Shown here one piece after another: positions 5,927 to 28,333 of a stretch of 64,000 bases of DNA. Source of the stretch: a virus (Duplodnaviria > Heunggongvirae > Uroviricota > Caudoviricetes); the IMG/VR virus record IMGVR_UViG_3300029841_000009, positions 4,544 to 68,543 of that record; one strand, given 5' to 3'. The stretch's first letter is position 1. Each line of letters begins with the position of its first letter. The notes under the pieces are model-generated. The model saw only the letters and a program-made list of their open reading frames with translations. It ran no database searches and was not told the DNA's origin. The position numbers were made by a program, and so were the translations under genes.

Positions 5927-5977
5927 CTTCTTTCTCCATTAGTGGGTCTGTTACGACCCACAGGTTAATAACAGGCG

Positions 5978-6970: not shown

Positions 6971-6978
6971 TTCCTCTC

Positions 6979-7973: not shown

Positions 7974-9649
7974 TGTGATTGCCCACCCTGACCACTAACT
8001 GCATTCGCCATAGCTGACAAAACACTCGGATCCGAAGTTTTAGCTTCGCTTAGCGTCTTGGCACCCTGTGCCGCCGCCATCCCCATCGCCATCATTTGTT
8101 GCTGCTGTTGTTGCTGTGCCCGTTGCTGGCGAGCCTGCTCAACCTGTTCCTGCGGAACAATGACGGTTGGAGACACTCCGGACATATCAGCGAATGCATC
8201 GATCGCCTGATCAACGTTGAGTTTGTCGAGAGCTTCTGGTTTCGCTTGCGCAAGTTGACCAATGAAGTTAACCGTGGACGCCAGACTGGACAGGCCGATA
8301 GACTTCTGCGCCTGAGCCATGACGGAAATGTATTCGACCTTCAGGGGCATACCTTCCATCACGTCTGGCGGTGGCGGCAGCATGTTTTTACGCACCATCA
8401 TCGAGAAAGAGCGGTCAATGAGAGGATTAAGACATTCGTCGTTCAGACGCTCCAGAACCGGCCCCAACATCAGAAGTTTTTCTTCTTTCATTTCGATCAC
8501 CGCTTCAACAGGCATCGAGCGGGTATTGATGTTCTGCAACATCATGAACAGATCGACAAAGTAGGCGCTGTTAATGATTTGACGAGTGTCCTGAATGTCT
8601 GCCACCAAATCTGCTGTACTGGGGTTAACCAGATAAGCAGGCCTGAAACCATCCTGACCAGTAATCTGATCGATATACGTGATGTCGCCAGGAAGAAGGG
8701 AGGCACGCTGATTCTTGAGGGAAGTCGGAGCAACCATCGGCGGATTGGTGGCTTTATCAATCAACTGCGACTTGCGCTTCTGGAGAAGCTGCAATGCCTT
8801 AACAGGTCCAAGCGCCAGCATACCCGGGCATGATGATCCATAAACATCTTCGCCGTTAACTTCCCAGCGCGGGGCCATAATTGGAAACTCATCGAATCCG
8901 GACTCACGCAACAACTTGTCGTTATCGCCACCAACCTCGTAATAAACCGATTTGAATGGCTTGTTCTTGCTATCCAGCTTCGATGTATCGCGGTCAATGT
9001 TCGGGTAAACCGAATGCATCACTTCAATCCACTTCTCGTAGGTTCCGCTTTCCCACATGCTTTTTACGGATTCGCTGACGTTATTTAGCCCGAACTCCTG
9101 AACAAGCTGACGAACAGTCATAGAGAACTTGCGAAAACAGGTGTCCACACTGCCACGAGGTGAGTTAGCCAGGTAGTAACTGCCTATCGGGAATGGCATT
9201 GTGCGAATGATGTCCTCGTCATCCTCCAGCACTGCCATTGCACCAGTGCTGTATGTGCCGAGGCTTCCGTATAACTGCGGCAGCGACTGATAGAGATTCG
9301 ACTTATTGAACATATCGTTCATGCGGTTCTGCACCGCCTCAAGCCACAACTTAACAGGGCCATAATCCATCATTTCAGGATCTGGCGTAGCCAGGCGAAA
9401 CCACGGACGCGCGGGGCTTGTGATGCCTGACATCATGCCGCTGGCGAGAGTGCGCGCCGCCATAGTCCCGGTCGAATCAATAATGCGTGTATTGCGTCGA
9501 TCGTTACGGTTGACCTCAGAAGTCAGAAAGCGGGAACCACGCGGGTTGATGTAATCACTCAACTCGCGCCAGTGCGGCTCGAACGACTGACGCTCGCTTT
9601 CAAGTTGTGCGAACTGTTTGTTCAATCGCTCTTTAGTTGTTTCCGCCAT
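7970..9649 (-). CDS. Portal / head-to-tail connector (T7 gp8-like)
   Basis: 559 aa; C-terminus QQQQQQMMAMGMAAAQGAKTLSEAKTSDPSVLSAMANAV resembles the Gln/Ala/Met-rich C-terminus of T7-type connectors. Confidence 0.75.
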   Translation of the reverse strand: MAETTKERLNKQFAQLESERQSFEPHWRELSDYINPRGSRFLTSEVNRNDRRNTRIIDSTGTMAARTLASGMMSGITSPARPWFRLATPDPEMMDYGPVKLWLEAVQNRMNDMFNKSNLYQSLPQLYGSLGTYSTGAMAVLEDDEDIIRTMPFPIGSYYLANSPRGSVDTCFRKFSMTVRQLVQEFGLNNVSESVKSMWESGTYEKWIEVMHSVYPNIDRDTSKLDSKNKPFKSVYYEVGGDNDKLLRESGFDEFPIMAPRWEVNGEDVYGSSCPGMLALGPVKALQLLQKRKSQLIDKATNPPMVAPTSLKNQRASLLPGDITYIDQITGQDGFRPAYLVNPSTADLVADIQDTRQIINSAYFVDLFMMLQNINTRSMPVEAVIEMKEEKLLMLGPVLERLNDECLNPLIDRSFSMMVRKNMLPPPPDVMEGMPLKVEYISVMAQAQKSIGLSSLASTVNFIGQLAQAKPEALDKLNVDQAIDAFADMSGVSPTVIVPQEQVEQARQQRAQQQQQQQMMAMGMAAAQGAKTLSEAKTSDPSVLSAMANAVSGQGGQSQ

Positions 9650-9663
9650 TTCAATGACTCCGG

Positions 9664-9870
9664 TTACTGACCAAGCAGCGTTTTACCGCTGGTATTAGCG
9701 GTTGATGTGTCGCCCTGAGAACCGGTAAGCAGCGTAGAACTACGACCAGCAGCAGCGCGACGGCGACGAGTTTCTTCGTCGCGGGCATCAACAACGGCGG
9801 CATCCTGCTCCTGTGGTGCTGCCTGAACTTCTGGTGTTGCAGGCACTGATGGTGAGCTACCCATGCACAT
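9664..9870 (-). CDS. Hypothetical small low-complexity protein
   Basis: 68-aa ORF ending 15 nt before the portal start; Ala/Thr/Gln-rich; coding status uncertain. Confidence 0.25.
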   Translation of the reverse strand: MCMGSSPSVPATPEVQAAPQEQDAAVVDARDEETRRRRAAAGRSSTLLTGSQGDTSTANTSGKTLLGQ

Positions 9871-10297
9871 ATCAATGACTCCGTACGCAATTAAATTATT
9901 ACCAATTTAACCACATATGATTTATTTATCGTAGATAGTTGACATTTAACGCACAAATTATTACCTTTCAGGTAACCAAAGAATTCATTCCGGTTACTAA
10001 CCTGACTGGCTTGTCGTTAAATTGAACAGGTGGAGTGAGCTTTTATTTTGAGCAGTACGGCGTATGGCACATGCGCCGATAGCGGTCTGGATACGTTTAA
10101 GGGGCACCCTCCCTGGCTGTGGCAAACGAACCAGGTAGCCGGAATGTGCAAGTCGAGCGGTTTTATTCCGCGCACGGGGATTCACCATCCCGGCGATTCG
10201 GTGTGACGCCTCGGAAGAGACGAGGGTACAACGATGAGAGCATTTATGGAGCCGCGACAAAGTGTGGCGCCTTAACAGGCTAAGTGCTCTCAGCGTT

Positions 10298-10374
10298 GTG
10301 GCATTAGCTCAGTCGGACAGAGCAACCGCCTTCTAAGCGGTTGGTCGCAGGTTCGAATCCTGCATGCCACGCCA
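10298..10374 (+). tRNA. tRNA-Arg (anticodon UCU)
   Basis: Cloverleaf read by hand: acceptor GTGGCAT/ATGCCAC, D-arm GCTC..GAGC, anticodon stem ACCGC/GCGGT with loop CTTCTAA, T-arm GCAGG-TTCGAAT-CCTGC, discriminator G, CCA. Confidence 0.8.
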
Positions 10375-10537
10375 GAATCACGCCTAAGGACCGTGATGCC
10401 AGAAGTTCCAGGTGCTTGGCGGTGATGGTTTCCCTTGAAGGACTATCACCACCCTTTTTACAGCAGGACGCCATTGCGATGACTTCATGCTGTAAACCAG
10501 TACAGCCACGGAAGGCATAACTCATTGCTTCCAGTTC

Positions 10538-10561
10538 GCCCGATTCGCCGGGCATTTTTTT
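10538..10561 (+). terminator. Rho-independent terminator downstream of the tRNA
   Basis: GCCCG-attcgc-CGGGC hairpin followed by ATTTTTTT. Confidence 0.5.
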
Positions 10562-10572
10562 AAGGTGAGATT

Positions 10573-10944
10573 ATGAACGACCAGCAAATCGAAAAAGAAA
10601 TCGTTGAGAAAGGCAAAACGGCACCGCGCGTTACGCCAGACCATATCGAAGGCATTATTGCTCAGGAGGCATATTTCACAGCAGAAGATGGTGCCTTTGG
10701 CAAAGCCATAAAAGAGAAACATACTGGCGGAGAGGTAAACTACCAGCCGCACGAATCACTTTCTCTGCTGACGTTCTGCGTCCTGGTGCTGCGCAACGGC
10801 TTCACCGTCACCGGAGAGAGCGCCTGTGCAAGCCCGGAAAACTTTGATGCGGAAATTGGTCGGAAGATTGCCCGGCAGAATGCTGTAAACAAAATCTGGA
10901 TGCTCGAAGGTTACTTGCTGAAGCAGAAGCTAAGCGAGCAATAA
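10573..10944 (+). CDS. Hypothetical moron protein (opposite orientation to the structural operon)
   Basis: 123-aa ORF with strong SD (AAGGTGAG) 4 nt upstream of the ATG; sits with the tRNA between TerL and portal on the opposite strand. Confidence 0.5.
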   Translation: MNDQQIEKEIVEKGKTAPRVTPDHIEGIIAQEAYFTAEDGAFGKAIKEKHTGGEVNYQPHESLSLLTFCVLVLRNGFTVTGESACASPENFDAEIGRKIARQNAVNKIWMLEGYLLKQKLSEQ

Positions 10945-11034
10945 CGCCGTGACATGTCACAATCAGCCAGCCTATGAGCTGGCTTTGTTTTATCCTCACC
11001 AGAGGATATCAGCAGCATTATCCCATCCAGCGGA

Positions 11035-12510
11035 TTAAGCATAGGGATCGTAATCTGTGATGGCTTTGCCTTGCTGGTTCTGCTGCCCGGGAATTCGCAG
11101 ACGCTTCGACACAGGGAACGCAAACGTCAGCAGTAGCGCATCGCCTTTACCAGGAGAACGCCCAAGTCGCTCTTTGATATCTTCCTTCGGTTCGATAACG
11201 ATTTTACCGTCCACGCGAACTTTGTACTCTGCCGTCGACAGGTCGTCCGCTGTTTCCTGGTCATCCAGCATGCCGCCGAGCCTCAGCCATGTCTTGCATG
11301 AGTTGAACATCTCCCCACGCTTGTTGAGCATCTGCGGGTCAGTAGACGCGCCACCGAACGGAACAAGTTGCCATGTACGACCCCAGCCGTCACCGATTGA
11401 CTTCAAACCGGTTCCGTAACCGAAGTCGATGAACACCGCGTCAGCCTGATACTGGTCTTCAAAGTCAGCGATACGCTTCGCCATAATCAGATCGTCGGTA
11501 GTCTTGTTGCCAGTCCACAGCACCTTACTGTGTAGCCCCTGCCGCAGGTATATCACCGCGTCATCAACGCCTGAATATGCCGGGTCAACACCGATTATCA
11601 CCGGAGCATGTGCAACCTGCGCAGCGGTTACCACCCGTTTCATTGCCTCGTCAGTAAGACCGGTAGGGATAAACTGCAATTCAGATGCATCAGGGAATAT
11701 GCCACGCACACGGATTTTAACGAAGTCGCTATCTTCCCCGTAGTCATCAACCCATTTCTGCAACTGCTGTTTGTTGGTGCCTTCCACCGTCCTGCTGTCA
11801 ATCTGCGCAGTTTTCCAGCGGTGTTTGTATTTGCGGAAACATTCACGGAAACGCCCGGTGTTACGTGTAGGGTTTCCGAAAGCCACCCAGATAATCTCAG
11901 TGTCTTCGTCCGTTAGCGCACCCTCGGCAACTTCCCACACCAGATCCGCAATGTTCGACGCTTCATCAAATACCACAATGATGCGTTTACGCTCGTTGTG
12001 TAGTCCGGCGAATGCCTCAGTGTTGTGCTCAGACCAGGGGATTGCGTCAGCTCGCCACCGCTTGTCGTGCCCAGGGTCATTGCTGTACATCGCGGTAGCG
12101 GTACAGGTAAACCAGTCTTTCGTGATAGCAAGGTTTGACCACTTGATAATTTCCGGCCAGGTCTTCGTTCGTAGCTGGTTGTCGGTGTTGGCGGTCACCA
12201 CGACCTTACAATCCTCGCAAGTGGACATGCCCCAGTTGATCAGCATTGAGATGAATGCGGATTTACCAATACCGTGACCAGAAGCACGTGCCAGCATAAG
12301 CGGCTGATATCGCGTCTCTGGATTCTGCAGGTGATCACGTATCTCTCGGAACGCATCAGCCTGCCACTGACGTGGGCCGGTGGCATGTGCCAGTTCAGTC
12401 CCCTCTTCCCCCCATGGGAACGCATAGAGGGCATAGCCAAGCGGATCGTGAGTGAACCCTGCAATATCCTCGATTAACTGCTCTTCAGGAGATAACGCTG
12501 TATCTGTCAC
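11035..12510 (-). CDS. Terminase large subunit
   Basis: 491 aa; Walker-A-like GHGIGKS near the N-terminus; directly downstream of TerS. Confidence 0.8.
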   Translation of the reverse strand: MTDTALSPEEQLIEDIAGFTHDPLGYALYAFPWGEEGTELAHATGPRQWQADAFREIRDHLQNPETRYQPLMLARASGHGIGKSAFISMLINWGMSTCEDCKVVVTANTDNQLRTKTWPEIIKWSNLAITKDWFTCTATAMYSNDPGHDKRWRADAIPWSEHNTEAFAGLHNERKRIIVVFDEASNIADLVWEVAEGALTDEDTEIIWVAFGNPTRNTGRFRECFRKYKHRWKTAQIDSRTVEGTNKQQLQKWVDDYGEDSDFVKIRVRGIFPDASELQFIPTGLTDEAMKRVVTAAQVAHAPVIIGVDPAYSGVDDAVIYLRQGLHSKVLWTGNKTTDDLIMAKRIADFEDQYQADAVFIDFGYGTGLKSIGDGWGRTWQLVPFGGASTDPQMLNKRGEMFNSCKTWLRLGGMLDDQETADDLSTAEYKVRVDGKIVIEPKEDIKERLGRSPGKGDALLLTFAFPVSKRLRIPGQQNQQGKAITDYDPYA

Positions 12511-13184
12511 TGATTGCCATCCTGACGTTCTTTCAGTCTCTTCCTGGCTGCCGCTATGCGATCAGCAATTGTCACATTCACATTAACATCCAGGCGTTCT
12601 TTGAATGCGTTGACGTCGACGTGCTTACCAATCAGTTCGAGGTTCTTCACCTTGTCAGGCCATTTAATTTTTTTGAGGATGCCAACCAGCTCTTTCTCGT
12701 CTCCACGGCCTTCGAACATGTCGGCCAGTTCGAAACCTGTCAGGTACTGCCGCCAGACCTTAGGCCATTCCGAGACCGGCTTGATGCTCATATCGTCGTT
12801 GAGAATGTCAATCACGTCCATCTGGTCGATCTCCACCAGGCGCATGAGAACGTAATCAGCACTGACGCGCATTCGTTTGTTGCGCTCCTCCATCAACTCG
12901 GCAATCCGTTTCTGAATGCGTTCATCGCGCATCATGACACTGGCTTTAACTGCCGCTGTATTTGGGGAGAATCCTGCATTAATCGCAGCCTGAGTCTGGT
13001 TTTCAGGCGTTTTGATGTATGACTGGCAATAAGCCTCCTGCATTGCTGTTAGTGGCTTAAATTGCGTTGATTTGCGTTTATAGGTTTTAGGTTCAGCAGG
13101 CATCATAACCACCGTGGTAATAGTTACCGTTGTGGTAATAGTACCATGCAAAATAAAGCCGCCATAGTTGGCGGCAGTATTCAA
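12507..13184 (-). CDS. Terminase small subunit (true start probably near 13106)
   Basis: Helical DNA-binding N-domain pattern (QEAYCQSYIKTPENQTQAAINAGFSPNTAAVKAS) of small terminases; the poly-Thr N-terminal extension in the ORF is probably untranslated. Confidence 0.65.
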   Translation of the reverse strand: MNTAANYGGFILHGTITTTVTITTVVMMPAEPKTYKRKSTQFKPLTAMQEAYCQSYIKTPENQTQAAINAGFSPNTAAVKASVMMRDERIQKRIAELMEERNKRMRVSADYVLMRLVEIDQMDVIDILNDDMSIKPVSEWPKVWRQYLTGFELADMFEGRGDEKELVGILKKIKWPDKVKNLELIGKHVDVNAFKERLDVNVNVTIADRIAAARKRLKERQDGNQ

Positions 13185-13224
13185 AACCCATCAAATTCAT
13201 CATGCATAACCCACTCGTGACATG

Positions 13225-13578
13225 TCACAATATTAATTTCGTTTCATGCCAGCCTTTAGTCACCCAGCATTGCGAGTCACCATTACACGGGCATGAATTC
13301 ACAGGAACTCTCTCGCCGCACTTACCGCAACGTTTTCTGCTGATCGATTTTATACGCCCGTGCACGCGCGCATCATCCTGGCGGATCAGTAACGCTATAT
13401 ACTCACCAAATTCGTAAGGCGCACGCCCGGGGCGACGTGTGGCACAGTTACGCTCCAGCATTTCAATTTCCTGAGCATCAAGCACAATCTCCAGCTTACG
13501 CACACCAGATGCAGCTTGTCTGGCTCTCTGAGCGGCTTTGCGCTCTGCTGCTGCCTTAGCCATTACCATATCCACCAA
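13225..13578 (-). CDS. Hypothetical protein with Cys-rich C-terminus
   Basis: 117-aa ORF upstream of TerS; CGKCG...CPC motif suggests zinc binding. Confidence 0.35.
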   Translation of the reverse strand: MVDMVMAKAAAERKAAQRARQAASGVRKLEIVLDAQEIEMLERNCATRRPGRAPYEFGEYIALLIRQDDARVHGRIKSISRKRCGKCGERVPVNSCPCNGDSQCWVTKGWHETKLIL

Positions 13579-13648
13579 ACTTCACCAGACATGATTCTCG
13601 CAATCACTATCATCACCAAAGTGATAATCACAACTTTAACTGGCGGCA

Positions 13649-14026
13649 TCATTCACCATCCTGCTCCGGCGGTTCTGGCAGCGGCATCCAGTGGGTTACC
13701 TCCTTGAGATACAGGTCTTCGCCACCACCGTCATCCCAAGTGGGCTTGCCATCATTAAACCAGTCGCCATATACGCCGACCTGAGTGTTGGGGATGCTTG
13801 GTGGGTAGTTGTTTTTAAAGTCAGCAGCTAACACATAGCATTGTCGCTCTCCCATTTCTGGCATTCGTTCACTACAGCTTATCCAACTCTCCGGAGTTAC
13901 CGGAGAGTTGCCAGCCTCATACGCCACACGCATCCAGTGCATAAGCGTTTCAGTGCTCACACAGCCGCAATCAACATCAATTTTGCCGTGCTGCTGTTCC
14001 AGCCATTGCTCAAGCGTAGTGCTCAT
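13649..14026 (-). CDS. DUF551-like protein
   Basis: C-terminal THWMPLPEPPE motif typical of lambdoid DUF551 proteins. Confidence 0.55.
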   Translation of the reverse strand: MSTTLEQWLEQQHGKIDVDCGCVSTETLMHWMRVAYEAGNSPVTPESWISCSERMPEMGERQCYVLAADFKNNYPPSIPNTQVGVYGDWFNDGKPTWDDGGGEDLYLKEVTHWMPLPEPPEQDGE

Positions 14027-14256
14027 TTTTCATCCCCCCGATGATGCCATCTGCATCGCATCTCATAACACCCCCACTCAACACGAAAACCACATAGCCT
14101 GTGCAGATCCACCCACTTCTGCGCCATCGCTGGCGACGTGTAAATCACAGTGAATGCGTTATCTTCGTTGTCGATTTGCGTAAACGTCACTTTGTACAAC
14201 AACCCACCGTCGACACATGCTGTGTTCAACGATTTATTGCTAATACCCTCAATCAT
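14023..14256 (-). CDS. Hypothetical protein
   Basis: 77-aa ORF coupled to neighbours. Confidence 0.35.
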   Translation of the reverse strand: MIEGISNKSLNTACVDGGLLYKVTFTQIDNEDNAFTVIYTSPAMAQKWVDLHRLCGFRVEWGCYEMRCRWHHRGDEK

Positions 14257-14900
14257 TCGTACTCACCCCCCGCTGTTTTGAATTTGATCTCCGCTGCCTG
14301 CAATGCGTGTTCGACGTCGAAGCGGTCCAGCCATCCACCAAAGTGGTGCGGCATCATTACCACCCGCTCACCGCTATTTATTGGGTGGCCCATACGGGGT
14401 TCGTAGCCGTCCGGTAACTCGACTTCCCGCGCTTCCAGTTCTGCTATGCGCTTCTCTGATGCTTCAAGTAACGCCTGCTTATCGCGTAGCGCTTCTTCCA
14501 GTTCAGCAACATGGCACTCACTATCAATAAGGTTGTTCTCTGCGGCTTCCAGCTCAACACGCAGCTTCCCTACCGTTAGCGCAATATCCTCGTTCTCTTG
14601 GTCGCGGCGTTTGATGTATTGCTGGTTTCTTTCCCGTTCATCCAACAATGCCAGCACGGTAACTGGATTGGCTGCGGCGATGAATTCAGCATTGGCCTGC
14701 TGTTCCATTTGGAAATCTTCATCGAAACCGCTTTCAGGATGCGCTCCTTCAATTCTGCAAATGGGAAGATATCCAACAACTTCACGATGAATTAGCGCAT
14801 CACCAGCATCAAATCTCTCCTCTCCATATTCTAGCGACCACACACCACACGTTGCTTTTTCTGCCTTAGCACGCAGTGCCTGGTAATTAATTTCGCTCAC
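14253..14900 (-). CDS. Ead/Ea22-like protein
   Basis: N-terminus MSEINYQALRAKAEKA and coiled-coil core LLDERERNQQYIKRRDQENEDIALTVGKLRVELEAAE, as in lambdoid Ead/Ea22 proteins. Confidence 0.55.
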   Translation of the reverse strand: MSEINYQALRAKAEKATCGVWSLEYGEERFDAGDALIHREVVGYLPICRIEGAHPESGFDEDFQMEQQANAEFIAAANPVTVLALLDERERNQQYIKRRDQENEDIALTVGKLRVELEAAENNLIDSECHVAELEEALRDKQALLEASEKRIAELEAREVELPDGYEPRMGHPINSGERVVMMPHHFGGWLDRFDVEHALQAAEIKFKTAGGEYE

Positions 14901-15137
14901 TGGCTGCCTCCTGCTTTTCTGCCTTCAACACCATGCGAGAACCATCATCCAGCTCCCACACTATCTCACCACCTTCAGCCATGACCAGTTGCCACACCAA
15001 TTGAGCAGCCTCATTGGTAACATCACGACCTGGATCATTGCCAACGCGCATACGTCCACCTTCAACATCGCGCATTTTTGCCAGCATGATAGTTTTTGAT
15101 AGCGGTGAAAAACCAAGCTGTAGTCGTGCTGAATTAC

Positions 15138-15764
15138 TCACTGGTTGCCTCCTTTGCGAAGCTGTTCCGCCCATTCTTCAAGGGATTTCTCCGCATATTC
15201 ACCGGACAGGCCATCAATCGGATGCGCTTCATTAACCAACTCTTCTTTCGCTGACAAAATCATGCGTGTAACGTCGAAAACTTCACGCAAAGACTTATTG
15301 ATAAATCCGTGATTGAACGCAGCAGCAAGACGGCTGGCGGTATAGTTAATCCCCTCGTTGCGTGCTTCCGCACGAATTTCAGCCAGAAAAGCATCGGTAG
15401 CTGGAGTTTCGCTGTGGTGTAGGGCATCATTGATAATCATTGCAGCAACACCAGCCTGCCCTGCATCCGTGACCGACACATGCTCAAGAGTTACGGCCAT
15501 TGCGTGTTTCAGTCCGTCGTTCTCCACCACCAGCGCAGCGAGATTAGTCTCATACTCCGCAATTCGGCACATAGCATCGATATTTGTGTCCTCCAGCCGC
15601 TTAATTTCATCCAGTAGCGCCAGCACAACCTGCGGTGTGACCTTCATACGAAACGCGAGCAATTTTTGCGGCGTTGCCACGACTTTTATTGCTTCTGCTG
15701 CCTCACGCAGTGCCTGGTAATTAATTTCGCTCACTGGTTGCCTCCTGAATACGCTTAAACTCAA
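15138..15764 (-). CDS. Ead/Ea22-like protein (paralog)
   Basis: Contains SEINYQALREAAEA; its 3' ~250 bp is near-identical to 63750-64000. Confidence 0.5.
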   Translation of the reverse strand: MSLSVFRRQPVSEINYQALREAAEAIKVVATPQKLLAFRMKVTPQVVLALLDEIKRLEDTNIDAMCRIAEYETNLAALVVENDGLKHAMAVTLEHVSVTDAGQAGVAAMIINDALHHSETPATDAFLAEIRAEARNEGINYTASRLAAAFNHGFINKSLREVFDVTRMILSAKEELVNEAHPIDGLSGEYAEKSLEEWAEQLRKGGNQ

Positions 15765-16491: not shown

Positions 16492-16790
16492 TCCTCATCT
16501 GCAACGGGGGTGTTCCGCTCCAGCACCTTGTCCGCATCGGAGATCAGGTTTGCCAGACTCTTGTCTGAAATCTTCGTTACCGGAGTCGTTGGTTGCTCAA
16601 CCTGCCCGATAGGTTTTATCGTGCTCAAAAGGAGGCGACGGCGGGAAAGTGGTGCCCCACAACGACGGCCATCTTCCTTGCGATATGTTTCTTTCGGACC
16701 AACACACCAGGTTGTCGGCGTCTCGCGCAACTTCACTTTTTTCTCACCATCATTGGTAATGATTATTCCGGTATGGGTTTTGATGCTCAT
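16425..16790 (-). CDS. Hypothetical protein
   Basis: 121-aa ORF, charged. Confidence 0.35.
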   Translation of the reverse strand: MSIKTHTGIIITNDGEKKVKLRETPTTWCVGPKETYRKEDGRRCGAPLSRRRLLLSTIKPIGQVEQPTTPVTKISDKSLANLISDADKVLERNTPVADEEWWQDFRAAMLELQERRREELK

Positions 16791-17089
16791 GCCACAGCCC
16801 CTCTCAACGGCTTAACTTTGGCTAATAAGGTGTTAAACAACATGGAGTTAGGATTCATGCCAAATGGCAATTCCGGTTTAGCGGAGTAGTACAGGCAACC
16901 ATTTATTTTCCTGGTTGTTATCTGTCCTTCGGCAACCATGCTTCTCAGTCTGCAACGCATAGAGTTCTGCGACACACCAATGTGCTCCGCGATTACGTCC
17001 ACTTTTGAACATGGGTGATCGGTCAGGAAATTAATCACATCTTGGGGGTTAATAATTTTGCGTTTCATTGTCGAGGCGTCCTTATACAT
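16787..17089 (-). CDS. Putative DNA-binding protein (probable start at MKRKIINPQD, about 17068)
   Basis: Helix-turn-helix-like segment; AT-rich iteron lies just upstream. Confidence 0.4.
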   Translation of the reverse strand: MYKDASTMKRKIINPQDVINFLTDHPCSKVDVIAEHIGVSQNSMRCRLRSMVAEGQITTRKINGCLYYSAKPELPFGMNPNSMLFNTLLAKVKPLRGAVA

Positions 17090-17117
17090 TTATATAAATA
17101 TATAATTCTATATACGG
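17084..17117. repeat. AT-rich iteron (TATATAAAT..TATAATTCTATATA family)
   Basis: Shares the TATAAAT / TATAATT core with seven other copies in the window. Confidence 0.5.
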
Positions 17118-17145: not shown

Positions 17146-18213
17146 TCAGGCTTTCAATAGCGATTCTTTCAGATATCGGGCATCAGCCAGGGCATTTGGA
17201 GTAATCTTGCGAACCCATGCATTACGGGTTGGACTCCACTTAAAGGCGCGTGATTTAAGCAGCGAACGAATGTTTGCCTCTGGTTTGCCAGGGAAATAAA
17301 ACAGGATGCGGTTATCCTCTGGATCTATCTCCATAGAAAAGTCGTCGTATTCTTCGCGCTGTGCTCCTGTTACAGACTTGACCGATTCAAGCTCCTTAAT
17401 ACGGCTCTGTAGTCGTTTGATCTCGGCGTTATTGTTGCTCAGTGCGTATGAAGGGAATCCGATGTGCCCACAGAAATCTCCGGCCAGTAACTCTTTGGCT
17501 TCGCTTTCTGTAAACCTGAGATCGATTAATGCAGAAAGCTGCTGTAATTGGTCTTTTTTGTATTTGCGAATGGCCTTATTTGCGGCCTTCATTTTGACGT
17601 GTGACTTCATGCAGCCTTGCAGCTTACGAAGCAACTTAAATAGCGCATCAGGATCATCAGACGAAATTCCATTACGACCAACACCTGCGGCTTTGCTCTC
17701 GTAGTGTGATGCTTTACTTTCGCATTCAACAAACGCTTTTCTTAATAACGCATCAGCTTTAGACAAACGGCGGCGATGGCCTTTCGCGCTATAATGGTCA
17801 ACTAAAATCGGCTGGCCTAACGGGATCACATCCAACAGGTCATGCGCTCGCTTATGCGCTACCGCACCTTCTTTTCTGGCTTTTTCTGCACGAGCAATAT
17901 ATCGGGCAAGACGCGCGTTCTGGCGTTCCTGATAGGTGTTTACGTAATCATCTCCGCGCTGCTGCTGTTCAAGCCATGCTTTGCGCAGATCTTCTGTTAC
18001 GTCCACCAGCTCCGCAGGGATACAACCAGTTTGGGCTTCATAAGAGTAACCATCCTCATAGATACGCCCATCATCTTCAACAAAGAAAAAGGTTTCGTGC
18101 TCATCGCTTTTGACCATACGACCATTAACATGGCGTAATAGGTAGCCAGTATCAGTGCTTAACAGGCTGTTAGGGTTGTTGATCCAGTCAGAAATAATTA
18201 CTTGTTTATTCAT
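17146..18213 (-). CDS. DUF3560-like protein
   Basis: 355 aa; central IPLGQPILVDHYSAKGHRRRLSKAD segment typical of DUF3560. Confidence 0.5.
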   Translation of the reverse strand: MNKQVIISDWINNPNSLLSTDTGYLLRHVNGRMVKSDEHETFFFVEDDGRIYEDGYSYEAQTGCIPAELVDVTEDLRKAWLEQQQRGDDYVNTYQERQNARLARYIARAEKARKEGAVAHKRAHDLLDVIPLGQPILVDHYSAKGHRRRLSKADALLRKAFVECESKASHYESKAAGVGRNGISSDDPDALFKLLRKLQGCMKSHVKMKAANKAIRKYKKDQLQQLSALIDLRFTESEAKELLAGDFCGHIGFPSYALSNNNAEIKRLQSRIKELESVKSVTGAQREEYDDFSMEIDPEDNRILFYFPGKPEANIRSLLKSRAFKWSPTRNAWVRKITPNALADARYLKESLLKA

Positions 18214-18335
18214 CAGATTTCTCCGGTTTAACCAGGGCGGGTATCGCTCGGTTTCGGGTATAACCTTAGGAAATTTTTTCCCACCTGTAAAGCACTTTTT
18301 ATATAAATCTATAATTATATATTTATAGATTTTCG
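18214..18335 (-). promoter_or_regulatory. Conserved promoter-leader cassette, copy 1
   Basis: AT-rich iteron, then -35 TTTACA, 17 bp, -10 TAAGGT, about 50-nt leader with GGAG SD; near-identical copies at 28215-28333 and 58794-58911. Confidence 0.5.
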
Positions 18336-18382: not shown

Positions 18383-18760
18383 TTACTCTCTTCGCTTTTT
18401 CAAATAGTCGACAACATACGCCCTGGCTTTTGCCAGCTTCCGGCGATACTGTCTGAGGCTAAGAGAAAGGGCGTGGGCTTTATCAATATGCGGTGCATTT
18501 ATGTCGAGGCCCCGAATCTCCCACGCCCCGTATTCAATTCGGACAACCAGCGCCGCAGTCTCATCAACTACCGTGAGGGCCGTCACCGCTCCCTCTATAC
18601 TGGTTTCCAGTGAGTCATTTGGTGCGCCGCCCCCTCCGGTAAACTGGCAGCGCGTAACCATCATCATTTCTAACATCGACGCGAAACCGCTACGGGCGTT
18701 GCAGCCATTGCGCACCCACAGCGCCCATAGCTCAAACAAGCTATCCAGATCGCGTCTCAC
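18383..18760 (-). CDS. Candidate late-gene antiterminator (Q-like), low confidence
   Basis: 125 aa; N-terminal MRRDLDSLFELWALW resembles the start of 82-type Q proteins; sits immediately upstream of the promoter cassette. Confidence 0.3.
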   Translation of the reverse strand: MRRDLDSLFELWALWVRNGCNARSGFASMLEMMMVTRCQFTGGGGAPNDSLETSIEGAVTALTVVDETAALVVRIEYGAWEIRGLDINAPHIDKAHALSLSLRQYRRKLAKARAYVVDYLKKRRE

Positions 18761-20733: not shown

Positions 20734-20752
20734 TTAACGAACTCCAGTTAAA

Positions 20753-20870
20753 ACCACGATATGTGGTATTAAAACCACATATCGTGAGTTTTTCAATGGG
20801 CAAAACAAAAAATAACCTTCTATTTGTGGTCCACCTCTCGTCTTACCATGTGAAAACCACTAAATGTGGT
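20753..20870. promoter_or_regulatory. Operator cluster between cro-like and CI-like genes
   Basis: Three 15-bp palindromes: ACCAC-GATAT-GTGGT (20753-20767), ACCAC-ATATC-GTGAG (20774-20788), ACCAC-TAAAT-GTGGT (20856-20870). Confidence 0.55.
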
Positions 20871-20907
20871 AATGTATAAATAACCCACCATTCACGATTG
20901 ATGAGAC

Positions 20908-22055: not shown

Positions 22056-22160
22056 ATATGATTATAGATTTATATAATTATATAAAACGCTTTTCATCCG
22101 CCAAAAAGTTGGTTATGCTTACCTCGTTCTATAAATATAGATTTATAGAATTATATAACC
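22056..22160. repeat. AT-rich iterons flanking the parA promoter (centromere/operator candidate)
   Basis: TATGATTATAGATTTATATAATTATATAA (22056-22088) and CTATAAATATAGATTTATAGAATTATATAA (22129-22160). Confidence 0.55.
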
Positions 22161-22166
22161 AAACAC

Positions 22167-22835
22167 ATGGAGTCTCGACAAATGACTATCTCTGTAGGTA
22201 TTTTCAACGGAAAAGGCGGCGTAACCAAATCAACAATTGCCCGTGCTTTAGCAGTTGCTTATGCAAAGGCTGGCTGGAATGTATGCCTGATCGATATGGA
22301 TGTGCTTAACGGAACGGTAACGCGTTGGGTACAACGCAGAATGGCCAACAATATCGAACCAGCAATCGCGGCGCAGCCGTGCGGCACACCATCACAAGTC
22401 CAGAAAATCATCGAATCAGAAGTATACGACCTGGTTATCGTCGATGGCGGTGCCTACGCATCTGAATCAGTACCGAAGCTCTCTGAATTTCTGGATATGG
22501 TTATTTTGCCAACCAGATTCTCTACCGATGACCTGGAAACCACCGTTAACACAGCTCACGGCATCGTTAAAAAGGGTGTACCAATCAAGAAAATTTGCAT
22601 GGTGTTTTCCGGCGCGGCTGAAAACGAAGCTGACTATATTGAAGCCCAAGAGTACCTGGCTAATACGCCATACTTTGTTGTCGATAAGTACATTCCCCAC
22701 AAGCCAGCTCTGAGCAAAGCTCAGGATAAGGGCTTAAGCCTTATTGAGTGCTCATACGTTGCGCCACGCAAAAAGGCAGACGATGTTATCCAGGGGATTA
22801 TCAATCAGCTTGAGGCTCTGACTACTGCCGCGTAA
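22167..22835 (+). CDS. parA: ParA/Soj-family partition ATPase (start possibly 22182)
   Basis: Deviant Walker A GIFNGKGGVTKST; about 220 aa, typical small ParA; GGAG SD 9 nt upstream of the second ATG. Confidence 0.8.
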   Translation: MESRQMTISVGIFNGKGGVTKSTIARALAVAYAKAGWNVCLIDMDVLNGTVTRWVQRRMANNIEPAIAAQPCGTPSQVQKIIESEVYDLVIVDGGAYASESVPKLSEFLDMVILPTRFSTDDLETTVNTAHGIVKKGVPIKKICMVFSGAAENEADYIEAQEYLANTPYFVVDKYIPHKPALSKAQDKGLSLIECSYVAPRKKADDVIQGIINQLEALTTAA

Positions 22836-22872
22836 TATATAATTATAGTTTTATAGATTTATATAAAAGGGG
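22835..22872. repeat. AT-rich iteron between parA and the RHH gene
   Basis: TAATATATAATTATAGTTTTATAGATTTATATAAAAGG. Confidence 0.5.
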
Positions 22873-22878: not shown

Positions 22879-23127
22879 ATGGCCGCACCATCAAAACCAC
22901 CGAAAAAGAACAGCAAAGGCGTACCGCCATCAATCGAACAACCGCAGGTTTTCGACCCGACTGAAACGCCGACCAGAACCAAATCAGGTGGGGCACAAAT
23001 GGCGTTTAACGTCGACCCTGAATTTAAACGCGAGTACAAAACGTTCGCCAGCTCAATGGATATGTCATTGAAAGAAGTGCTGACAAAATCTTTTGAGTTA
23101 CTCAAGGCTCAATACAACCAGAAGTAA
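22879..23127 (+). CDS. ParG-like ribbon-helix-helix partition / centromere-binding protein
   Basis: 82 aa with disordered basic N-terminus and C-terminal RHH-like MAFNVDPEFKREYKTFASSMDMSLKEVLTKSFELLKAQ; directly downstream of parA. Confidence 0.55.
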   Translation: MAAPSKPPKKNSKGVPPSIEQPQVFDPTETPTRTKSGGAQMAFNVDPEFKREYKTFASSMDMSLKEVLTKSFELLKAQYNQK

Positions 23128-23349: not shown

Positions 23350-23371
23350 AAAAAAGGCCCCCGAAGGGGCC
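23350..23371 (-). terminator. Rho-independent terminator (minus-strand orientation)
   Basis: GGCCCC-cgaa-GGGGCC hairpin with T5 on the minus strand. Confidence 0.5.
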
Positions 23372-23377
23372 TAATCG

Positions 23378-23500
23378 CTACTTGCTGCTAATGTTTATCG
23401 TCACATTCAGAGCGTTATCAGTAATCTTCCAACCCTCCCCATGTGGCGTAAACAAAGCTCCAGTAACAACGATAAAAATACACATACAGTATTTTTTCAT
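23378..23500 (-). CDS. Small hydrophobic protein (40 aa, MKKYCMCIFIVVTGALFTPHGEGW...)
   Basis: Internal start of the 23378-23560 ORF with AAGGG SD 7 nt upstream; hydrophobic N-terminus; terminator downstream. Confidence 0.3.
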   Translation of the reverse strand: MKKYCMCIFIVVTGALFTPHGEGWKITDNALNVTINISSK

Positions 23501-23731
23501 TGTATGGCCCTTACAGGCCGTTTCACGGCATCCCCACCGACGAAAACAACGCGAGAGCAAGCACGGCTGCTTGTGCTTGCATGTACGGCAACGGAGAATC
23601 CTCCCCTAAAGTCGGTGCCCGGGTGCGAATCGGCGGGAAGGTCCACAGGTATTTTACGATTATTTTAAGATTAGTTATAGGAAAGAAATTAAACGAAAAA
23701 ACTCGTTTATTTTCACAAAATCAGTAACCTA

Positions 23732-24014: not shown

Positions 24015-24095
24015 CGAGCCGTAGCAAAATCTACGGTCGGGATTGGAACCCCGATAATCATCATGGCGCATACCGCGTTAGCGGTTTTTTTATGC
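24015..24095 (+). ncRNA. Candidate c4-like antisense/regulatory RNA in the antirepressor leader
   Basis: Hairpins CCGTAG-caaaat-CTACGG and TCGGG-AUUGGAA-CCCGA, then terminator ACCGC-gtta-GCGGT plus T7; loop UUGGAAC is complementary to GUUCCAA at 24175-24181. Confidence 0.3.
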
Positions 24096-24256
24096 GTAAA
24101 GCACTGCTACACCCAAATTATGGTGGGGCGTGCGGGGGAGTCGTAAGACTCGCCGGATTCCATGGTGACCGGTAGTTCCAACCCTGTACGTCTCACCACC
24201 CAATGATTGGAACCAGACGGTGGTGAGTATCCTTAACCTTTAAGGGAACTATCACC

Positions 24257-24448
24257 ATGACAAACCTACCCCATGACTATTACGTCAACCTCGTAAAGAT
24301 CCTTCTCAAGAAAGCCTCATACGCCGATAAATTCCGCCTGGCTGAAATCATCGAGCGCGAAGCTATGCGCATCGCCAGCAACGATAACGCTGTTTCTGTC
24401 GCAAAAATCTCCCTCGTAACCAAAGTAGTTATGGGAGGTGCAAAATGA
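24257..24448 (+). CDS. Small protein translationally coupled to the antirepressor (Icd-like position)
   Basis: 63-aa ORF; its stop overlaps the ant ATG (ATGA). Confidence 0.4.
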   Translation: MTNLPHDYYVNLVKILLKKASYADKFRLAEIIEREAMRIASNDNAVSVAKISLVTKVVMGGAK

Positions 24449-25626
24449 AAACGCTTCCGACCGTTAACACCCTACAGCCTATCCTGCATAACCAGCTCCC
24501 CGTTATCACTACTGAACTACTGGCGCAATTGTATGGAACCGAGCGCCAACGTCTGACAAACAATTTCAATAGAAACAAGGAACGTTTTATAGAAGGTAAA
24601 CACTTTTTTAGGATAGAAGGTAAAGAGTTACGAGAGTTGAAGAACAAAAACTCTTTAAGAGTTCCTGTGAGAGTAGTTAACGAACCATCTTTAAGAGGGT
24701 TACAAATTCCCCCGAAAGTTCGCTCCCTCATCCTCTGGACAGAACGCGGGGCTGCACGTCACGCCAAAATGCTTGAAACTAACCAAGCGTGGGATGTGTT
24801 CGAACGGCTGGAAGACAGCTACTTCAACCAGAACGCACAAACGGCCGCGACCGTAACCGTCTCACCAAACAATGCTCGTGAGGTTGTCGATACGCTCAAC
24901 GCCAAACCAATGTATTACGTTAAGGTGTGCAACAACGAGCCACTCACAACCTCAGCCGATGTTGCCCAAGCATTCAGCACCACAAACAATTCCATCGTTA
25001 TGGCCATCGATGCGTTACGCATTCCTCGCACGGCTGCGGCGCGTCACTTCTTTAAAGAACAACGACCGCTGGAAGGAAGCGACCGCGAAATAACAATCTA
25101 TCGCATGACAAAAGACGGATTTACCTTGCTCATGGAAAGTATCGACGGTCCAGGCGTGAAGGATATCAAGCTGGCCTACATTGAAGCCTTTAACGCTATC
25201 AGCAGCGTGTTAAAGGCAGAATACGAGCGAATGCTATACAACCGACTGTATCAGGAAACAAAGATTATCCGAACGGCAACAGAACATCATCGGCTATTAA
25301 CGGAACCAAACTACCGCAAGACACTAATCAAAGAGTTTGACAAGGCGACGGAGAAAACTAAAGCGGCACTAAATCTACCAACAATGACTAAAGATGATGT
25401 GATATCAGCCTTACTTCTTGATCTGCTCAGAAACGCCAGAGCACTTATCAGTTTTGACGAAAACCTGAATCCTCAGCTCAAGCTACTACCACCGACAGGC
25501 AAAGTAGTCGACCAAGCAGATCACAACAGCATACTCAGCGTACTGGATGCAAACCTGCCAGCCAGGACACTACAGGAGCTGATAAAAATATCTGCGGATA
25601 AACTGGCCGCAGGTGCAAAACCATAA
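24445..25626 (+). CDS. Antirepressor (ORF6N-like N-domain + Rha-like domain)
   Basis: N-terminal LYGTERQRLTNNFNRNKERFIEGKHFFRIEGKELRELKN; central ITIYRMTKDGFTLLMESIDGPGVKDIKLAYIEAFN (Rha-type). Confidence 0.75.
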   Translation: MKTLPTVNTLQPILHNQLPVITTELLAQLYGTERQRLTNNFNRNKERFIEGKHFFRIEGKELRELKNKNSLRVPVRVVNEPSLRGLQIPPKVRSLILWTERGAARHAKMLETNQAWDVFERLEDSYFNQNAQTAATVTVSPNNAREVVDTLNAKPMYYVKVCNNEPLTTSADVAQAFSTTNNSIVMAIDALRIPRTAAARHFFKEQRPLEGSDREITIYRMTKDGFTLLMESIDGPGVKDIKLAYIEAFNAISSVLKAEYERMLYNRLYQETKIIRTATEHHRLLTEPNYRKTLIKEFDKATEKTKAALNLPTMTKDDVISALLLDLLRNARALISFDENLNPQLKLLPPTGKVVDQADHNSILSVLDANLPARTLQELIKISADKLAAGAKP

Positions 25627-26931: not shown

Positions 26932-27204
26932 TCATTTGATCCCTTGTTCCAATTCTGCCGACACTTTAACCTTTTCCCATACAAGGGTTTGCAGCCTTAA
27001 CAGAATCGCATCTTTATCAAGGTGTGAAAGATCCTTAACCATATCGTCAAACGACAGAACGCGAATGGCCATCTCAATGACCCTCGGCGGCTCCCCCTTC
27101 TCATATCGCTTATATGTAGCCAACGATATCCCAAACTCTTCGGCTGCTCGCTCCTGCGTCCAGTTCATCCCACGACGCCATAATTTCAATTCGTAACCCG
27201 TCAT
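26932..27204 (-). CDS. HTH-XRE family transcriptional regulator
   Basis: ELKLWRRGMNWTQERAAEEFGISLATYKRYEKGE: Cro/C1-type HTH. Confidence 0.6.
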   Translation of the reverse strand: MTGYELKLWRRGMNWTQERAAEEFGISLATYKRYEKGEPPRVIEMAIRVLSFDDMVKDLSHLDKDAILLRLQTLVWEKVKVSAELEQGIK

Positions 27205-27305
27205 TACATCCTCTACCTTTCCCTAGATATTCAATAAATTAGACATAGCCACTCACGACAAAATAAGATGTATTAACAATCCAATCTTTAGGCTTTAGGT
27301 AAAAA

Positions 27306-27731
27306 ATGAGTTCATCTGCTTTTGTCACCGTGGTCACTGGTGTAAGTGTTTTTGTTCTAGGCCAACTCATCGTCAAAGGAGCTATTGAGCCTTACATTTC
27401 ATTCAGGGAACAACTAGGGAAAATATCCAATCTGTTATTATGTAACCAAGCAAAAATAGTGAATCCTAGCTCGAACTTAAAGCCAGAAATCATTCATGAT
27501 CTAAAAGATTCCGCAGCACAGTTAATGGCAAAATATTCCACTTTACCTTTCTATATCAAAAAGTTACATATCGGCTTTCGTCTTGTTCCATCAGCCACCG
27601 AGATTCTTGGGGCAGCTCGAAATTTGAACTATATAGCGTCAATACATGAAGGTAAGACTGGGGAGAATCCATCTAAGCATCTCGAAGAGATTGGCCATAT
27701 GCTCAAAATACCAACTACCTATTCAAGCTAA
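27306..27731 (+). CDS. Hypothetical protein with N-terminal TM helix (AT-rich gene)
   Basis: 141 aa; AFVTVVTGVSVFVLGQLIV TM segment; divergent from the HTH gene; visibly lower GC than its neighbours. Confidence 0.45.
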   Translation: MSSSAFVTVVTGVSVFVLGQLIVKGAIEPYISFREQLGKISNLLLCNQAKIVNPSSNLKPEIIHDLKDSAAQLMAKYSTLPFYIKKLHIGFRLVPSATEILGAARNLNYIASIHEGKTGENPSKHLEEIGHMLKIPTTYSS

Positions 27732-27833
27732 CCCAATGTAAGTTATCGGCTTGCCCCACAATAAGTTATCTATCTTCAAACGCCCCTATATTAACACTCG
27801 CAAAGTGTCAAAATGACACTTTGCGCATTGTGT

Positions 27834-28214: not shown

Positions 28215-28333
28215 CGGGTTATCTCCGGTTTAACCAGGGCGGGTATCGCTCGGTTTCGGGTATAACCATAGGAAATTTTTTCCCACCTGTAAAGCACTTT
28301 TATATAAATCTATAATTATATAATTCTATGAGC
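28215..28333 (-). promoter_or_regulatory. Conserved promoter-leader cassette, copy 2
   Basis: Near-identical to 58794-58911; -35 TTTACA, 17 bp, -10 TATGGT, leader, GGAG SD, ATG. Confidence 0.5.

Follow-up and report, generated by a model that had tools for sequence, protein, structure and literature searches.

Three promoter-leader cassettes of a tailed phage-plasmid are homologous to KorC-repressed promoters of IncP and IncU plasmids and carry AT-rich repeats at the KorA operator position

The closest described relatives of the promoters analyzed here belong to the kil-kor systems of conjugative plasmids. In RP4, KorC is a global repressor of klcAp, kleAp, and kleCp (PMC12365149; PMC7314908), and the same three promoters have class II operators for KorA, which is encoded in the partition operon (PMC2665229). 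With KorA and KorC both repressing it, RP4 klcA is nearly silent at steady state and becomes ~120- to 220-fold induced in new transconjugants (PMC7314908), while kil genes are harmful once derepressed (PMC10871194). In the IncU plasmid RA3, KorC represses orf02p, klcAp, and three further promoters, as established experimentally (PMC7414963), and in pOXA-48 a KorC site is predicted between the -35 and -10 (PMC12365149). Here, we describe a cassette of this kind that occurs three times in a stretch of viral DNA of 64,000 nucleotides (IMG/VR record IMGVR_UViG_3300029841_000009, positions 4,544 to 68,543; hereafter, the window), within a tailed phage living as a plasmid, or phage-plasmid. In IncP-1 plasmids, this family of promoters, the repressor acting on it, and its occurrence in several copies have been known since 1988-1993; Kornacki et al. 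reportedly described in 1993 that kleA and kleC have highly homologous, duplicated promoter regions and that a fragment bearing "palindrome C" is shifted by korC extracts. We consider it probable that the three cassettes, homologues of the KorC/KorA-repressed kil-kor promoters, belong to a phage-plasmid regulon under repressor control, with co-repression by a KorC homologue and a partition protein and a burst of expression on entry into a new cell.

An initial annotation of the window had pointed to a near-identical sequence present three times on the minus strand, which alignment, a 51-nt pattern scan, and self-BLAST all bear out. The cassettes lie at 18211-18328 (copy 1), 28212-28329 (copy 2), and 58791-58908 (copy 3). 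By self-BLAST, copies 2 and 3 are 100% identical over 119 bp, and copy 1 is 94-96% identical to either; the 51-nt core pattern has three exact matches in the window and none in 100 dinucleotide-preserving shuffles. The three-copy alignment is near-invariant from the first AT-rich unit to the start codon, and similarity is lost past both ends. The genes behind the copies are mutually unrelated, as the annotation had stated: a DUF3560 gene (355 aa, 17146-18213), a 126-aa open reading frame (ORF) of PHROG 8090 (27834-28214), and an 89-aa ORF of PHROG 6143 (58524-58793). None of these first genes is a klcA or kle homologue.

Read directly from the sequence, each cassette has the same layout: four 8-bp AT-rich units, a sigma-70 promoter, a 17-bp palindrome in the spacer, and a leader with a hairpin followed by GGAG and ATG. 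It is predicted to be a self-contained sigma-70 promoter with its own 5' leader and ribosome-binding site (RBS). The hexamers first noted (TTTACA, 17 bp, TATGGT or TAAGGT), the GGAG Shine-Dalgarno (SD) sequence, and the ATG are all present, with GGAG 8-9 nt before the ATG in every copy. What had been called an AT-rich "iteron" does consist of AT-rich repeats; its correct form is four tandem 8-bp units (consensus ATATAATT/ATAGATTT), an array of 32 bp upstream of and abutting the -35. The hexamers of the annotated promoter stand, and two elements had been missed. One is the palindrome TGGGAAA-AAA-TTTCCTA, whose 17 bp fill the spacer so that its final two bases are the first two of the -10, and which we regard as the likely main operator. 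The other is the leader hairpin: the leader, ~45-50 nt long, runs from a stem-loop (AACCG.GCG-loop-CGC..UGGUU) through AAACCGGAG to the ATG. In a promoter scan, TTTACA-17 bp-TATGGT of copies 2 and 3 matches 9/12 hexamer positions; copy 1, with TAAGGT as its -10, matches 8/12, which is under the scanner threshold. Arrays were scored by a position-weight scan for four consecutive 8-bp units, and simulated sequence, used as the null, reached a maximum of 17.5. The parts of the three cassettes and their immediate borders are as follows.

18297-18328, minus strand: array of copy 1, four 8-bp units CTATAAAT ATATAATT ATAGATTT ATATAAAA abutting the -35, score 39.4 (null maximum 17.5)
18263-18291, minus strand: predicted core promoter of copy 1, -35 TTTACA (18291-18286), 17-bp spacer, -10 TAAGGT (18268-18263)
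18283-18267, minus strand: KorC-type palindrome of copy 1, TGGGAAAAAATTTCCTA
18211-18262, minus strand: leader of copy 1, hairpin 18253-18230, SD GGAG 18224-18221, ATG of the DUF3560 gene 18213-18211
28362-28340: intrinsic-terminator-like hairpin directly upstream of the copy 2 array
28298-28329, minus strand: array of copy 2, units ATAGAATT ATATAATT ATAGATTT ATATAAAA, score 43.1
28265-28293, minus strand: predicted core promoter of copy 2, TTTACA-17-TATGGT, palindrome 28285-28269
28212-28264, minus strand: leader of copy 2, predicted start ~28258-28256, hairpin 28255-28232, GGAG 28226-28223, ATG of the 126-aa ORF 28214-28212
58905-59492: MT-A70 methyltransferase gene, its stop codon overlapping the distal end of the copy 3 array
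58877-58908, minus strand: array of copy 3, four 8-bp units
58844-58872, minus strand: predicted core promoter of copy 3, TTTACA-17-TATGGT, palindrome 58864-58848
58791-58843, minus strand: leader of copy 3, hairpin 58834-58811, GGAG 58805-58802, ATG of the 89-aa ORF 58793-58791

The terminator-like hairpin just before copy 2 suggests that transcription starts anew at this cassette, which drives a small gene pair adjoining the replication and toxin-antitoxin region. The operon behind copy 3 runs on into ParB_N and ParB_N-methyltransferase genes.

The same arrangement recurs in related elements. The phage-plasmid occupies ~15.1-64 kb of the window and is 98% identical to a circular 48,488-bp plasmid of E. 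coli ATCC 25922 (L001, NZ_CP009073), which has the same three cassettes and whose gene content comprises a myovirus-type head and tail, lysis, a CI-like repressor, RepA, ParA, and toxin-antitoxin genes. Because phage head, tail, and lysis genes stand together with RepA, ParA, and toxin-antitoxin genes on one plasmid, elements of this type are phage-plasmids, and by its sequence the 48.6-kb element of the window is classed as a myovirus-type one. Three cassettes are its normal state. Among 5,426 complete E. coli genomes, 74 are carriers, with a median of three places each and nearly all of them on ~48-kb plasmids (214 of the 217 places are on plasmids), and each of three Yersinia phage isolates has three cassettes. 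With L001 we compared L002 (a Salmonella plasmid), L003 (a Serratia plasmid of myovirus type), and L103 (a Serratia plasmid of siphovirus type); the last three share the backbone for replication, partition, and immunity and carry three cassettes apiece, ahead of differing genes. Flanks included, copies are 88-91% identical within a genome, 81-85% identical between the E. coli and Salmonella types, and 56-59% identical between those and the Serratia types. Across these lineages, the hexamers, their spacing, the dyad symmetry of the palindrome, and the SD sequence are retained while the sequence drifts.

A cassette was also seen on a 28.5-kb conjugative resistance plasmid (L007, NZ_CP037908.1; cfr, IS26), at 4001-4048, where IS26 truncates it right after GGTGGGAAAAA; the module therefore circulates on non-phage plasmids too. 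Next to it lie the same RelE/HTH pair of toxin and antitoxin genes and a ParA/ParG-like locus that is related and bears similar AT-rich units. A pattern scan of IMG/VR gave many chance matches, the real ones being only cassettes of the E. coli and Salmonella types with little added diversity, and a scan of contigs with a ParA alignment returned unrelated ParA fragments only.

Homology with the plasmid promoters can be seen directly in the DNA of R772, an IncP-1 beta plasmid, which reads ...GTTTAGCTAAAGTGCTTGACAGGCTAGGGCATTTTGCCCTAATATAGCACTTGAAGGCCGGGCA....GCCCAGGTCAACTACCGGAGAAAGTCCGATG ahead of klcA and kleA. These regions align with the cassette over AAAGTGCTT(T/G)ACA, a 17-bp TAGG...CCTA palindrome, the -10, the hairpin, GGCCGGGCA...GCCCAGGTC, ACCGGAG, and CCGATG. 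The cassette hexamers line up with TTGACA and TAATAT of R772, whose palindromes at the equivalent position are TAGGGCATTTTGCCCTA and TAGGACATTTTGCCCTA. Two independent nhmmer profiles, one built from phage-plasmid copies alone and one from IncP copies alone, were then used reciprocally. In the IncP loci, the phage-plasmid profile matches exactly klcAp and kleAp (E 1e-12 to 2e-8); the IncP profile finds the Serratia copies (E 6e-14 to 5e-9), the Salmonella copies (E 2.7e-4), and window copies 2 and 3 (E 5e-4), and does not report window copy 1 at E <= 1. Since each single-source profile finds the copies of the other, the homology is no artifact of a mixed model.

Further members of the family are found on IncP-type plasmids of Delftia, Pseudomonas, Novosphingobium, and Klebsiella, and on an IncU plasmid the cassettes ahead of orf02 and klcA match the profile. 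Several copies occur together in the Klebsiella IncP-type plasmid L108 (NZ_CP081817.1; 6548-9009 and 32011) and in the IncU plasmid L109 (NZ_MH328007.1; 20690-21163), each with its own palindrome at the same position (TAGGACAAAATGTCCTA in L108, TAGGCCAAAATGGCCTA in L109) and an almost unchanged leader. Family-wide, therefore, the leader is more conserved than the operators.

A search of the window for the palindrome found, besides the three copies of TGGGAAAAAATTTCCTA, a single further perfect one, TAGGAAAAGATTTCCTA, at 29873-29889, within a promoter-like TTGCCA-17-TATCAT directly upstream of ORF 29555-29842.

29869-29897, minus strand: putative fourth promoter, TTGCCA-17-TATCAT, with palindrome TAGGAAAAGATTTCCTA at 29889-29873; neither an AT-rich array nor the conserved leader is present
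29555-29842, minus strand: korC homologue encoding a 95-aa helix-turn-helix (HTH) protein, presumed binder of the 17-bp palindromes (BLASTP, tblastn, PDB profile)

The 95-aa HTH protein is 51% identical to KorC of R772 (BLASTP, E 4e-23), and tblastn against plasmids with the same protein matches genes annotated korC; korC homologues are present on 1,994 plasmids of PLSDB. In a PDB profile search, its family finds the HTH domain of AcrIF24 (E 3e-7) and Aca3 (E 0.017). It is conserved in the E. coli and Salmonella lineages and in Serratia L003, and an unannotated ORF of L103 reads close to the L003 protein. The fourth palindrome is kept in L001, L002, L003, and L103, and all four sites of a genome switch jointly: their half-sites are TTTCCTA in E. 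coli and Salmonella, and both Serratia plasmids have TAGGA-N7-TCCTA with AGTCCTA as the half-site. Homology of the protein and this co-variation of its candidate sites make the KorC homologue the likely binder of the palindromes.

Two other proteins were considered as binders. The CI-like repressor was set aside, as its likely operators at 20750-20880 are palindromes of the ACCAC/GTGGT type, unlike anything in the cassette. This region, between the CI-like gene and the early operon, has several ACCAC(A)-N-GTGGT palindromes, including a 43-bp inverted repeat at 20750-20792, and these are likely CI operators. A 90-aa HTH_3 protein encoded in the copy 2 operon (26932-27204) has no counterpart in Serratia L003; it was rejected because the palindromes persist in both Serratia phage-plasmids, and the KorC homologue in L003.

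The second operator of the IncP-1 promoters is where the phage-plasmid departs from its relatives. The KorA operator GTTTAGCTAAAC, which lies beside the -35 in IncP-1, is absent from the cassette, and the last of the four 8-bp AT-rich units sits in its place. No KorA-like or KorB homologue was found in the phage-plasmid. A 124-aa ORF before parA, tried as a KorA analogue, has no KorA similarity, no PDB match, and no DNA-binding features. A weak profile match at the parA flanks led to further units there. Eight arrays in the window score 30-43: three in the cassettes, three at parA/parG, and two elsewhere.

22056-22160, plus strand: regulatory region of parA with two arrays, one at 22056-22087 directly adjoining a -35-like TTTTCA and one at 22129-22160 immediately ahead of the parA RBS
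22182-22835, plus strand: parA, small Walker-type partition ATPase of 217 aa (Pfam CbiA/ParA/MipZ)
22837-22868, plus strand: four-unit array between parA and the ParG-like gene
22879-23127, plus strand: gene of an 82-aa ParG/omega-like protein, presumed binder of the 8-bp arrays (AlphaFold2 topology, family profile)
17080-17115, minus strand: extra array between the DUF3560 gene and ORF 16787-17089, followed by CCTCGACAATG
60013-60048, minus strand: extra array between ORFs 60046-60255 and 59703-60002

One array at the parA promoter directly adjoins the -35, as in the cassettes. CCTCGACAATG, after the array at 17080-17115, resembles the RBS and start context of parA, TCTCGACAAATG, so control of ORF 16787-17089 may be like that of parA. 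In the position-weight scan, there is no array near repA (30486-31466), and the reading of the units as replication iterons was rejected.

Centromere-binding proteins of type Ib have a ribbon-helix-helix fold, recognize short repeats, and regulate promoters; pSM19035 has three separate, promoter-linked iteron sites that serve as operators and as centromeres alike (PMC5016525). The 82-aa ORF of the phage-plasmid starts 43 bp after parA and is conserved in the four lineages. Its AlphaFold2 model (mean pLDDT 66) has a disordered, basic stretch at residues 1-40, an extended segment at 41-46, and helices at 47-59 and 62-81. The family profile finds PDB 2KEL, which we take to be the ribbon-helix-helix protein SvtR of SIRV1, at a borderline E of 0.0096 over the strand-helix-helix part; there is no Pfam match and no significant similarity to ParG or omega, and fold searches gave nothing. 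From the model, the protein would provisionally be built like the type Ib centromere-binding proteins ParG and omega. Its candidate sites co-vary as well. In the Serratia plasmids, the units of the cassette and of the par locus are both of another type (TAAAGA/TAAATA), and the 10-mers shared between cassette and par spacer number 15-26 in the E. coli/Salmonella group, 7-26 in the Serratia group, and 0 across the groups. Judged by sequence, the AT-rich units plausibly belong to the partition locus, with the 82-aa protein as their presumed binder. The initial annotation had proposed a portable operator-promoter module controlled by a protein that recognizes the repeats. This is broadly right, in that the module is reused, control by DNA-binding proteins is very probable, and an array-recognizing protein is plausible; the KorC homologue at 29555-29842 and the relation to the partition locus had escaped it.

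The arrays could instead be mainly dispersed centromere sites for the ParA/ParG-like system, their adjacency to promoters being incidental or secondary, in the manner of the several N15 centromere sites or of the three parS sites in pSM19035, a reading that we regard as rather unlikely although it survives better than the others discussed below. The eight arrays are scattered, two of them not beside a recognizable KorC-type promoter, and type Ib centromeres are arrays of short repeats, of which pSM19035 has three separate ones (PMC5016525). However, in each of the three cassettes as well as at the parA promoter, array and -35 abut and their distance is fixed, and the cassette array takes the exact place of the IncP-1 KorA operator. 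As the pSM19035 sites do both jobs, centromere function would complement co-repression rather than compete with it.

The leader was examined over 25 distinct sequences from phage-plasmids, IncP-type plasmids, and IncU plasmids by counting pairs in an 8-bp stem with one bulge. Pairing holds in 92% of cells, against 10-47% in slid-partner controls. Compensatory changes occur at two pairs in separate lineages (G-C to A-U in E. coli/Salmonella, C-G to U-A in a Klebsiella plasmid), one stem pair occurs as G-U, A-U, and G-C, and the observed covariation score is reached by 0/500 shuffles. The G-U pairs in the stem argue for an RNA on the sense strand rather than a DNA site. The stem starts 1-4 nt after the 5' end predicted from the -10, and hairpins at a 5' end are known to guard mRNA from 5'-end-dependent decay (ompA-type stabilizers). 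In the window, the leader has no match in Rfam 15 at gathering thresholds, and a permissive scan of copy 2 gave noise (E > 5). Antisense control of the leader by the C4, isrK, and ryfA RNAs of the element was considered and rejected, the duplex energies lying within the shuffled range.

These data raise a second alternative, namely that the conserved leader is itself a post-transcriptional control element, such as a translational-repressor operator or the target of a host factor, and the main reason why the cassette is intact to the ATG. We find this unlikely. It would accommodate the retention of GGCCGGGCA...GCC.AGG..., ACCGGAG, and CCGATG from alphaproteobacterial IncP-like plasmids to enterobacterial phage-plasmids while the palindrome and upstream operators diverge freely, as well as the compensatory changes, the G-U pairs, and the lack of a covering Rfam family. 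On the other hand, the fold stability z-scores are just -0.8 to -1.9, so that the leader is not unusually stable; independent covariation events are few; complementarity to the C4, isrK, and ryfA RNAs does not exceed chance; and a simple 5' stabilizer hairpin with a strong RBS accounts for the leader data.

The anatomy of the cassettes, their homology to the IncP/IncU ones, the presence of a KorC homologue, and the co-variation of the sites between lineages are shown by the sequences. For co-repression by the KorC homologue and the partition protein, we infer the pairing of binders with sites, repression as its effect, the timing of expression, and the role of the hairpin, and propose the following scheme. 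A dimer of the KorC homologue would bind the 17-bp palindrome in the spacer, overlapping the -10, and block RNA polymerase, and it would regulate its own gene through the fourth palindrome-bearing promoter. The 82-aa ParG/omega-like protein would bind the four 8-bp units at the -35, the position of the KorA operator in IncP-1, and add repression; its binding would tie the three operons to the level of the partition protein, and the arrays may double as dispersed centromere sites. The promoters would need no activator. In an established carrier, where both repressors are present, the three operons would be low; in a naive cell after infection or transfer, no repressor would be present, and a burst of expression ("zygotic induction") would follow until the repressors accumulate. 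The stem-loop at the 5' end, together with the invariant ACCGGAG...GATG, probably yields a stable and well-translated mRNA.

Several observations weigh against this scheme. The -10 of the E. coli-type cassettes (TATGGT/TAAGGT) is a modest match, with copy 1 below the scanner threshold. The assignment of the arrays to the 82-aa protein rests on position and on co-variation in two specificity groups only, and another binder is possible because every backbone protein diverges between those two groups. The hairpin shows approximately two independent covariation events, and since most stem positions never vary, its support is moderate. Finally, the downstream genes are not klcA or kle homologues, and an establishment or anti-defense role is assigned to them by analogy.

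That analogy runs as follows. The homologous promoters of RP4, behind which lie the antirestriction gene klcA and host-toxic kil genes, become active when a new cell is entered, which makes the DUF3560, PHROG 8090, and PHROG 6143 genes good candidates for functions in establishment, host takeover, or anti-defense. The ParB_N and ParB_N-methyltransferase genes in the copy 3 operon, and a Lar-family restriction-alleviation gene in the corresponding operon of Serratia L103, would fit, by comparison with klcA, a role of the cassette operons in establishment and in anti-restriction or anti-defense.

A third alternative, put forward in the initial annotation, sees in the cassette a Q-dependent late promoter whose activator or antiterminator would be the 125-aa protein encoded just upstream of copy 1 (18383-18760). 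Copy 1 does come after the last gene of the early operon, the operon behind copy 3 heads towards the packaging genes, and an element lies between the -35 and -10, where lambda Q binds. However, the 125-aa ORF matches no antiterminator family: no Pfam family is found at E <= 0.01, EIIA-man alone (0.079) appears at E <= 10, PHROG 5285 to which it belongs is of unknown function, and the NCBIfam PA0613-family match scores 21 bits against a cutoff of 100. In all three cassettes, no terminator-like site lies between the -10 and the ATG of the first gene, and the -35 is full. Moreover, the spacer palindrome also stands before the korC homologue and in IncP-1 and IncU plasmids without phage genes, and the copy 2 gene pair is near the replication and toxin-antitoxin region rather than among late genes. 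Dependence on Q is therefore highly improbable. Still less probable, to the point of being negligible, is that the copies are recent duplication or gene-conversion scars without a function of their own, for all that their greater likeness within a genome than between lineages shows homogenization. Four phage-plasmid lineages that have diverged and differ in their structural modules all retain three copies, the sequence changes without loss of the promoter hexamers, their spacing, the symmetry of the palindrome, or the SD, and the homologous IncP/IncU promoters are experimentally active.

The first part of the window, positions 1-15128, is late-region DNA from a lambdoid prophage of an ordinary chromosomal kind, and an ead/Ea22-like repeat of 256 bp, 97% identical between its two copies, lies at 15149-15404 and 63745-64000, 48,596 bp apart, bracketing one full phage-plasmid genome (self-BLAST). 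With these repeats at its borders and prophage DNA alongside, the phage-plasmid appears to have integrated into a resident prophage by homologous recombination. Such integration fits the 3 chromosomal places among the 217 cassette places in E. coli genomes. The element is not of the pSLy3 type, pSLy3 types being SSU5-like elements of 85-134 kb. Between the two genes of the copy 2 operon, a stretch of ~575 bp (27213-27788) has no counterpart in the ATCC 25922 plasmid; it carries a plus-strand 141-aa ORF (27306-27731) and may be an insertion splitting the operon. A group of features at 23350-23646 (minus), 24018-24091 (plus), 24116-24203 (plus), and 24257-25626 (plus) includes Rfam matches to ryfA, isrK, and C4 antisense RNA. 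Those to isrK and C4 are directly upstream of a small ORF and a 393-aa ORF6N-domain protein, beside the par locus, a layout that resembles the antisense-controlled antirepressor module of the P1/P7 immI type. Two tRNA genes are present, one in the lambdoid prophage part (10298-10371, plus strand) and one in the phage-plasmid part (59804-59876, minus strand), the latter annotated as tRNA-Ile in the ATCC 25922 plasmid.

We found no description of the KorC-type family in a tailed phage-plasmid; in the literature searched, no paper naming both KorC and phage-plasmids has either term in its title or abstract. Its occurrence there, the exchange of the KorA operator for type Ib partition repeats, and the conservation of the leader across very distant replicons appear to be new. 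The result is a testable regulatory map for a common phage-plasmid, with four KorC-type operators, eight partition-type arrays, and three co-regulated operons. A promoter-operator-leader module of conjugative broad-host-range plasmids thus extends to tailed phages, with one operator exchanged to fit another partition system, clearly an instance of regulatory circuits of plasmids and phages being rewired module by module; the conserved leader hairpin, for its part, is a candidate new RNA motif. More tentatively, and as a possibility to which we give less weight than to co-repression as such, a tailed temperate phage-plasmid may have adopted the logic of the IncP/IncU kil-kor systems, so that partition protein and KorC jointly gate three operons that burst on entry and couple segregation status to establishment and anti-defense genes. 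Separately and just as tentatively, the leader hairpin and RBS, whose conservation extends from IncP-like plasmids of alphaproteobacteria to phage-plasmids of enterobacteria and which have no Rfam family, may be an undescribed post-transcriptional element of entry genes.

Among known systems, one parallel is with Aca-controlled anti-CRISPR promoters. Aca-type proteins repress their own genes by binding inverted repeats in strong early promoters of mobile elements, and the HTH domain of AcrIF24 and Aca3 are the closest solved relatives of the KorC homologue; they are related to it only through the HTH fold family, and no anti-CRISPR gene was identified downstream of the cassettes. The linear phage-plasmid N15 likewise has partition-protein sites scattered over its genome as dispersed centromeres, some of them beside phage promoters. 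Unlike the element described here, N15 uses type Ia SopAB with inverted-repeat sites and has neither a KorC-type operator nor a shared promoter-leader cassette. Also comparable are omega of pSM19035 and ParG of TP228, small proteins whose genes follow that of a small ParA and which have a disordered N-terminal tail before a strand-helix-helix C-terminus, with short tandem repeats at their own operon and at other promoters. In contrast to those systems, the unit of the phage-plasmid is 8 bp long and very AT-rich, its arrays are paired with a second, KorC-type operator, and the 82-aa protein, their predicted binder, has no significant sequence similarity to omega or ParG.

The KorC regulon of an IncU plasmid offers a further comparison. 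In RA3, as is proposed for the phage-plasmid, KorC is a global repressor of several dispersed promoters (PMC7414963), and the IncU cassettes ahead of orf02 and klcA match the same profile and have the same leader. The upstream elements differ, and whereas the korC promoter of RA3 is weak and constitutive (PMC7414963), the korC homologue of the phage-plasmid has its own palindrome-bearing promoter. The klcA, kleA, and kleC promoters of the IncP-1 plasmids RK2, RP4, and R751 are likewise known relatives. There, DNA homology extends from the -35 through to the ATG, a 17-bp TAGG-N9-CCTA palindrome in the 17-bp spacer overlaps the -10, the leader hairpin and ACCGGAG...CCGATG are conserved, and several near-identical copies precede different genes of one replicon that also carries korC. 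In IncP-1, the second co-repressor, KorA, is bound just upstream of the -35 and comes from the partition operon, and a parallel is proposed for the phage-plasmid. Here, however, the KorA site GTTTAGCTAAAC is replaced by four 8-bp AT-rich units common to a putative type Ib par locus, the core of the palindrome is rich in AAA/TTT, none of the downstream genes is related to klcA or kle, and the host replicon is a tailed temperate phage living as a plasmid.

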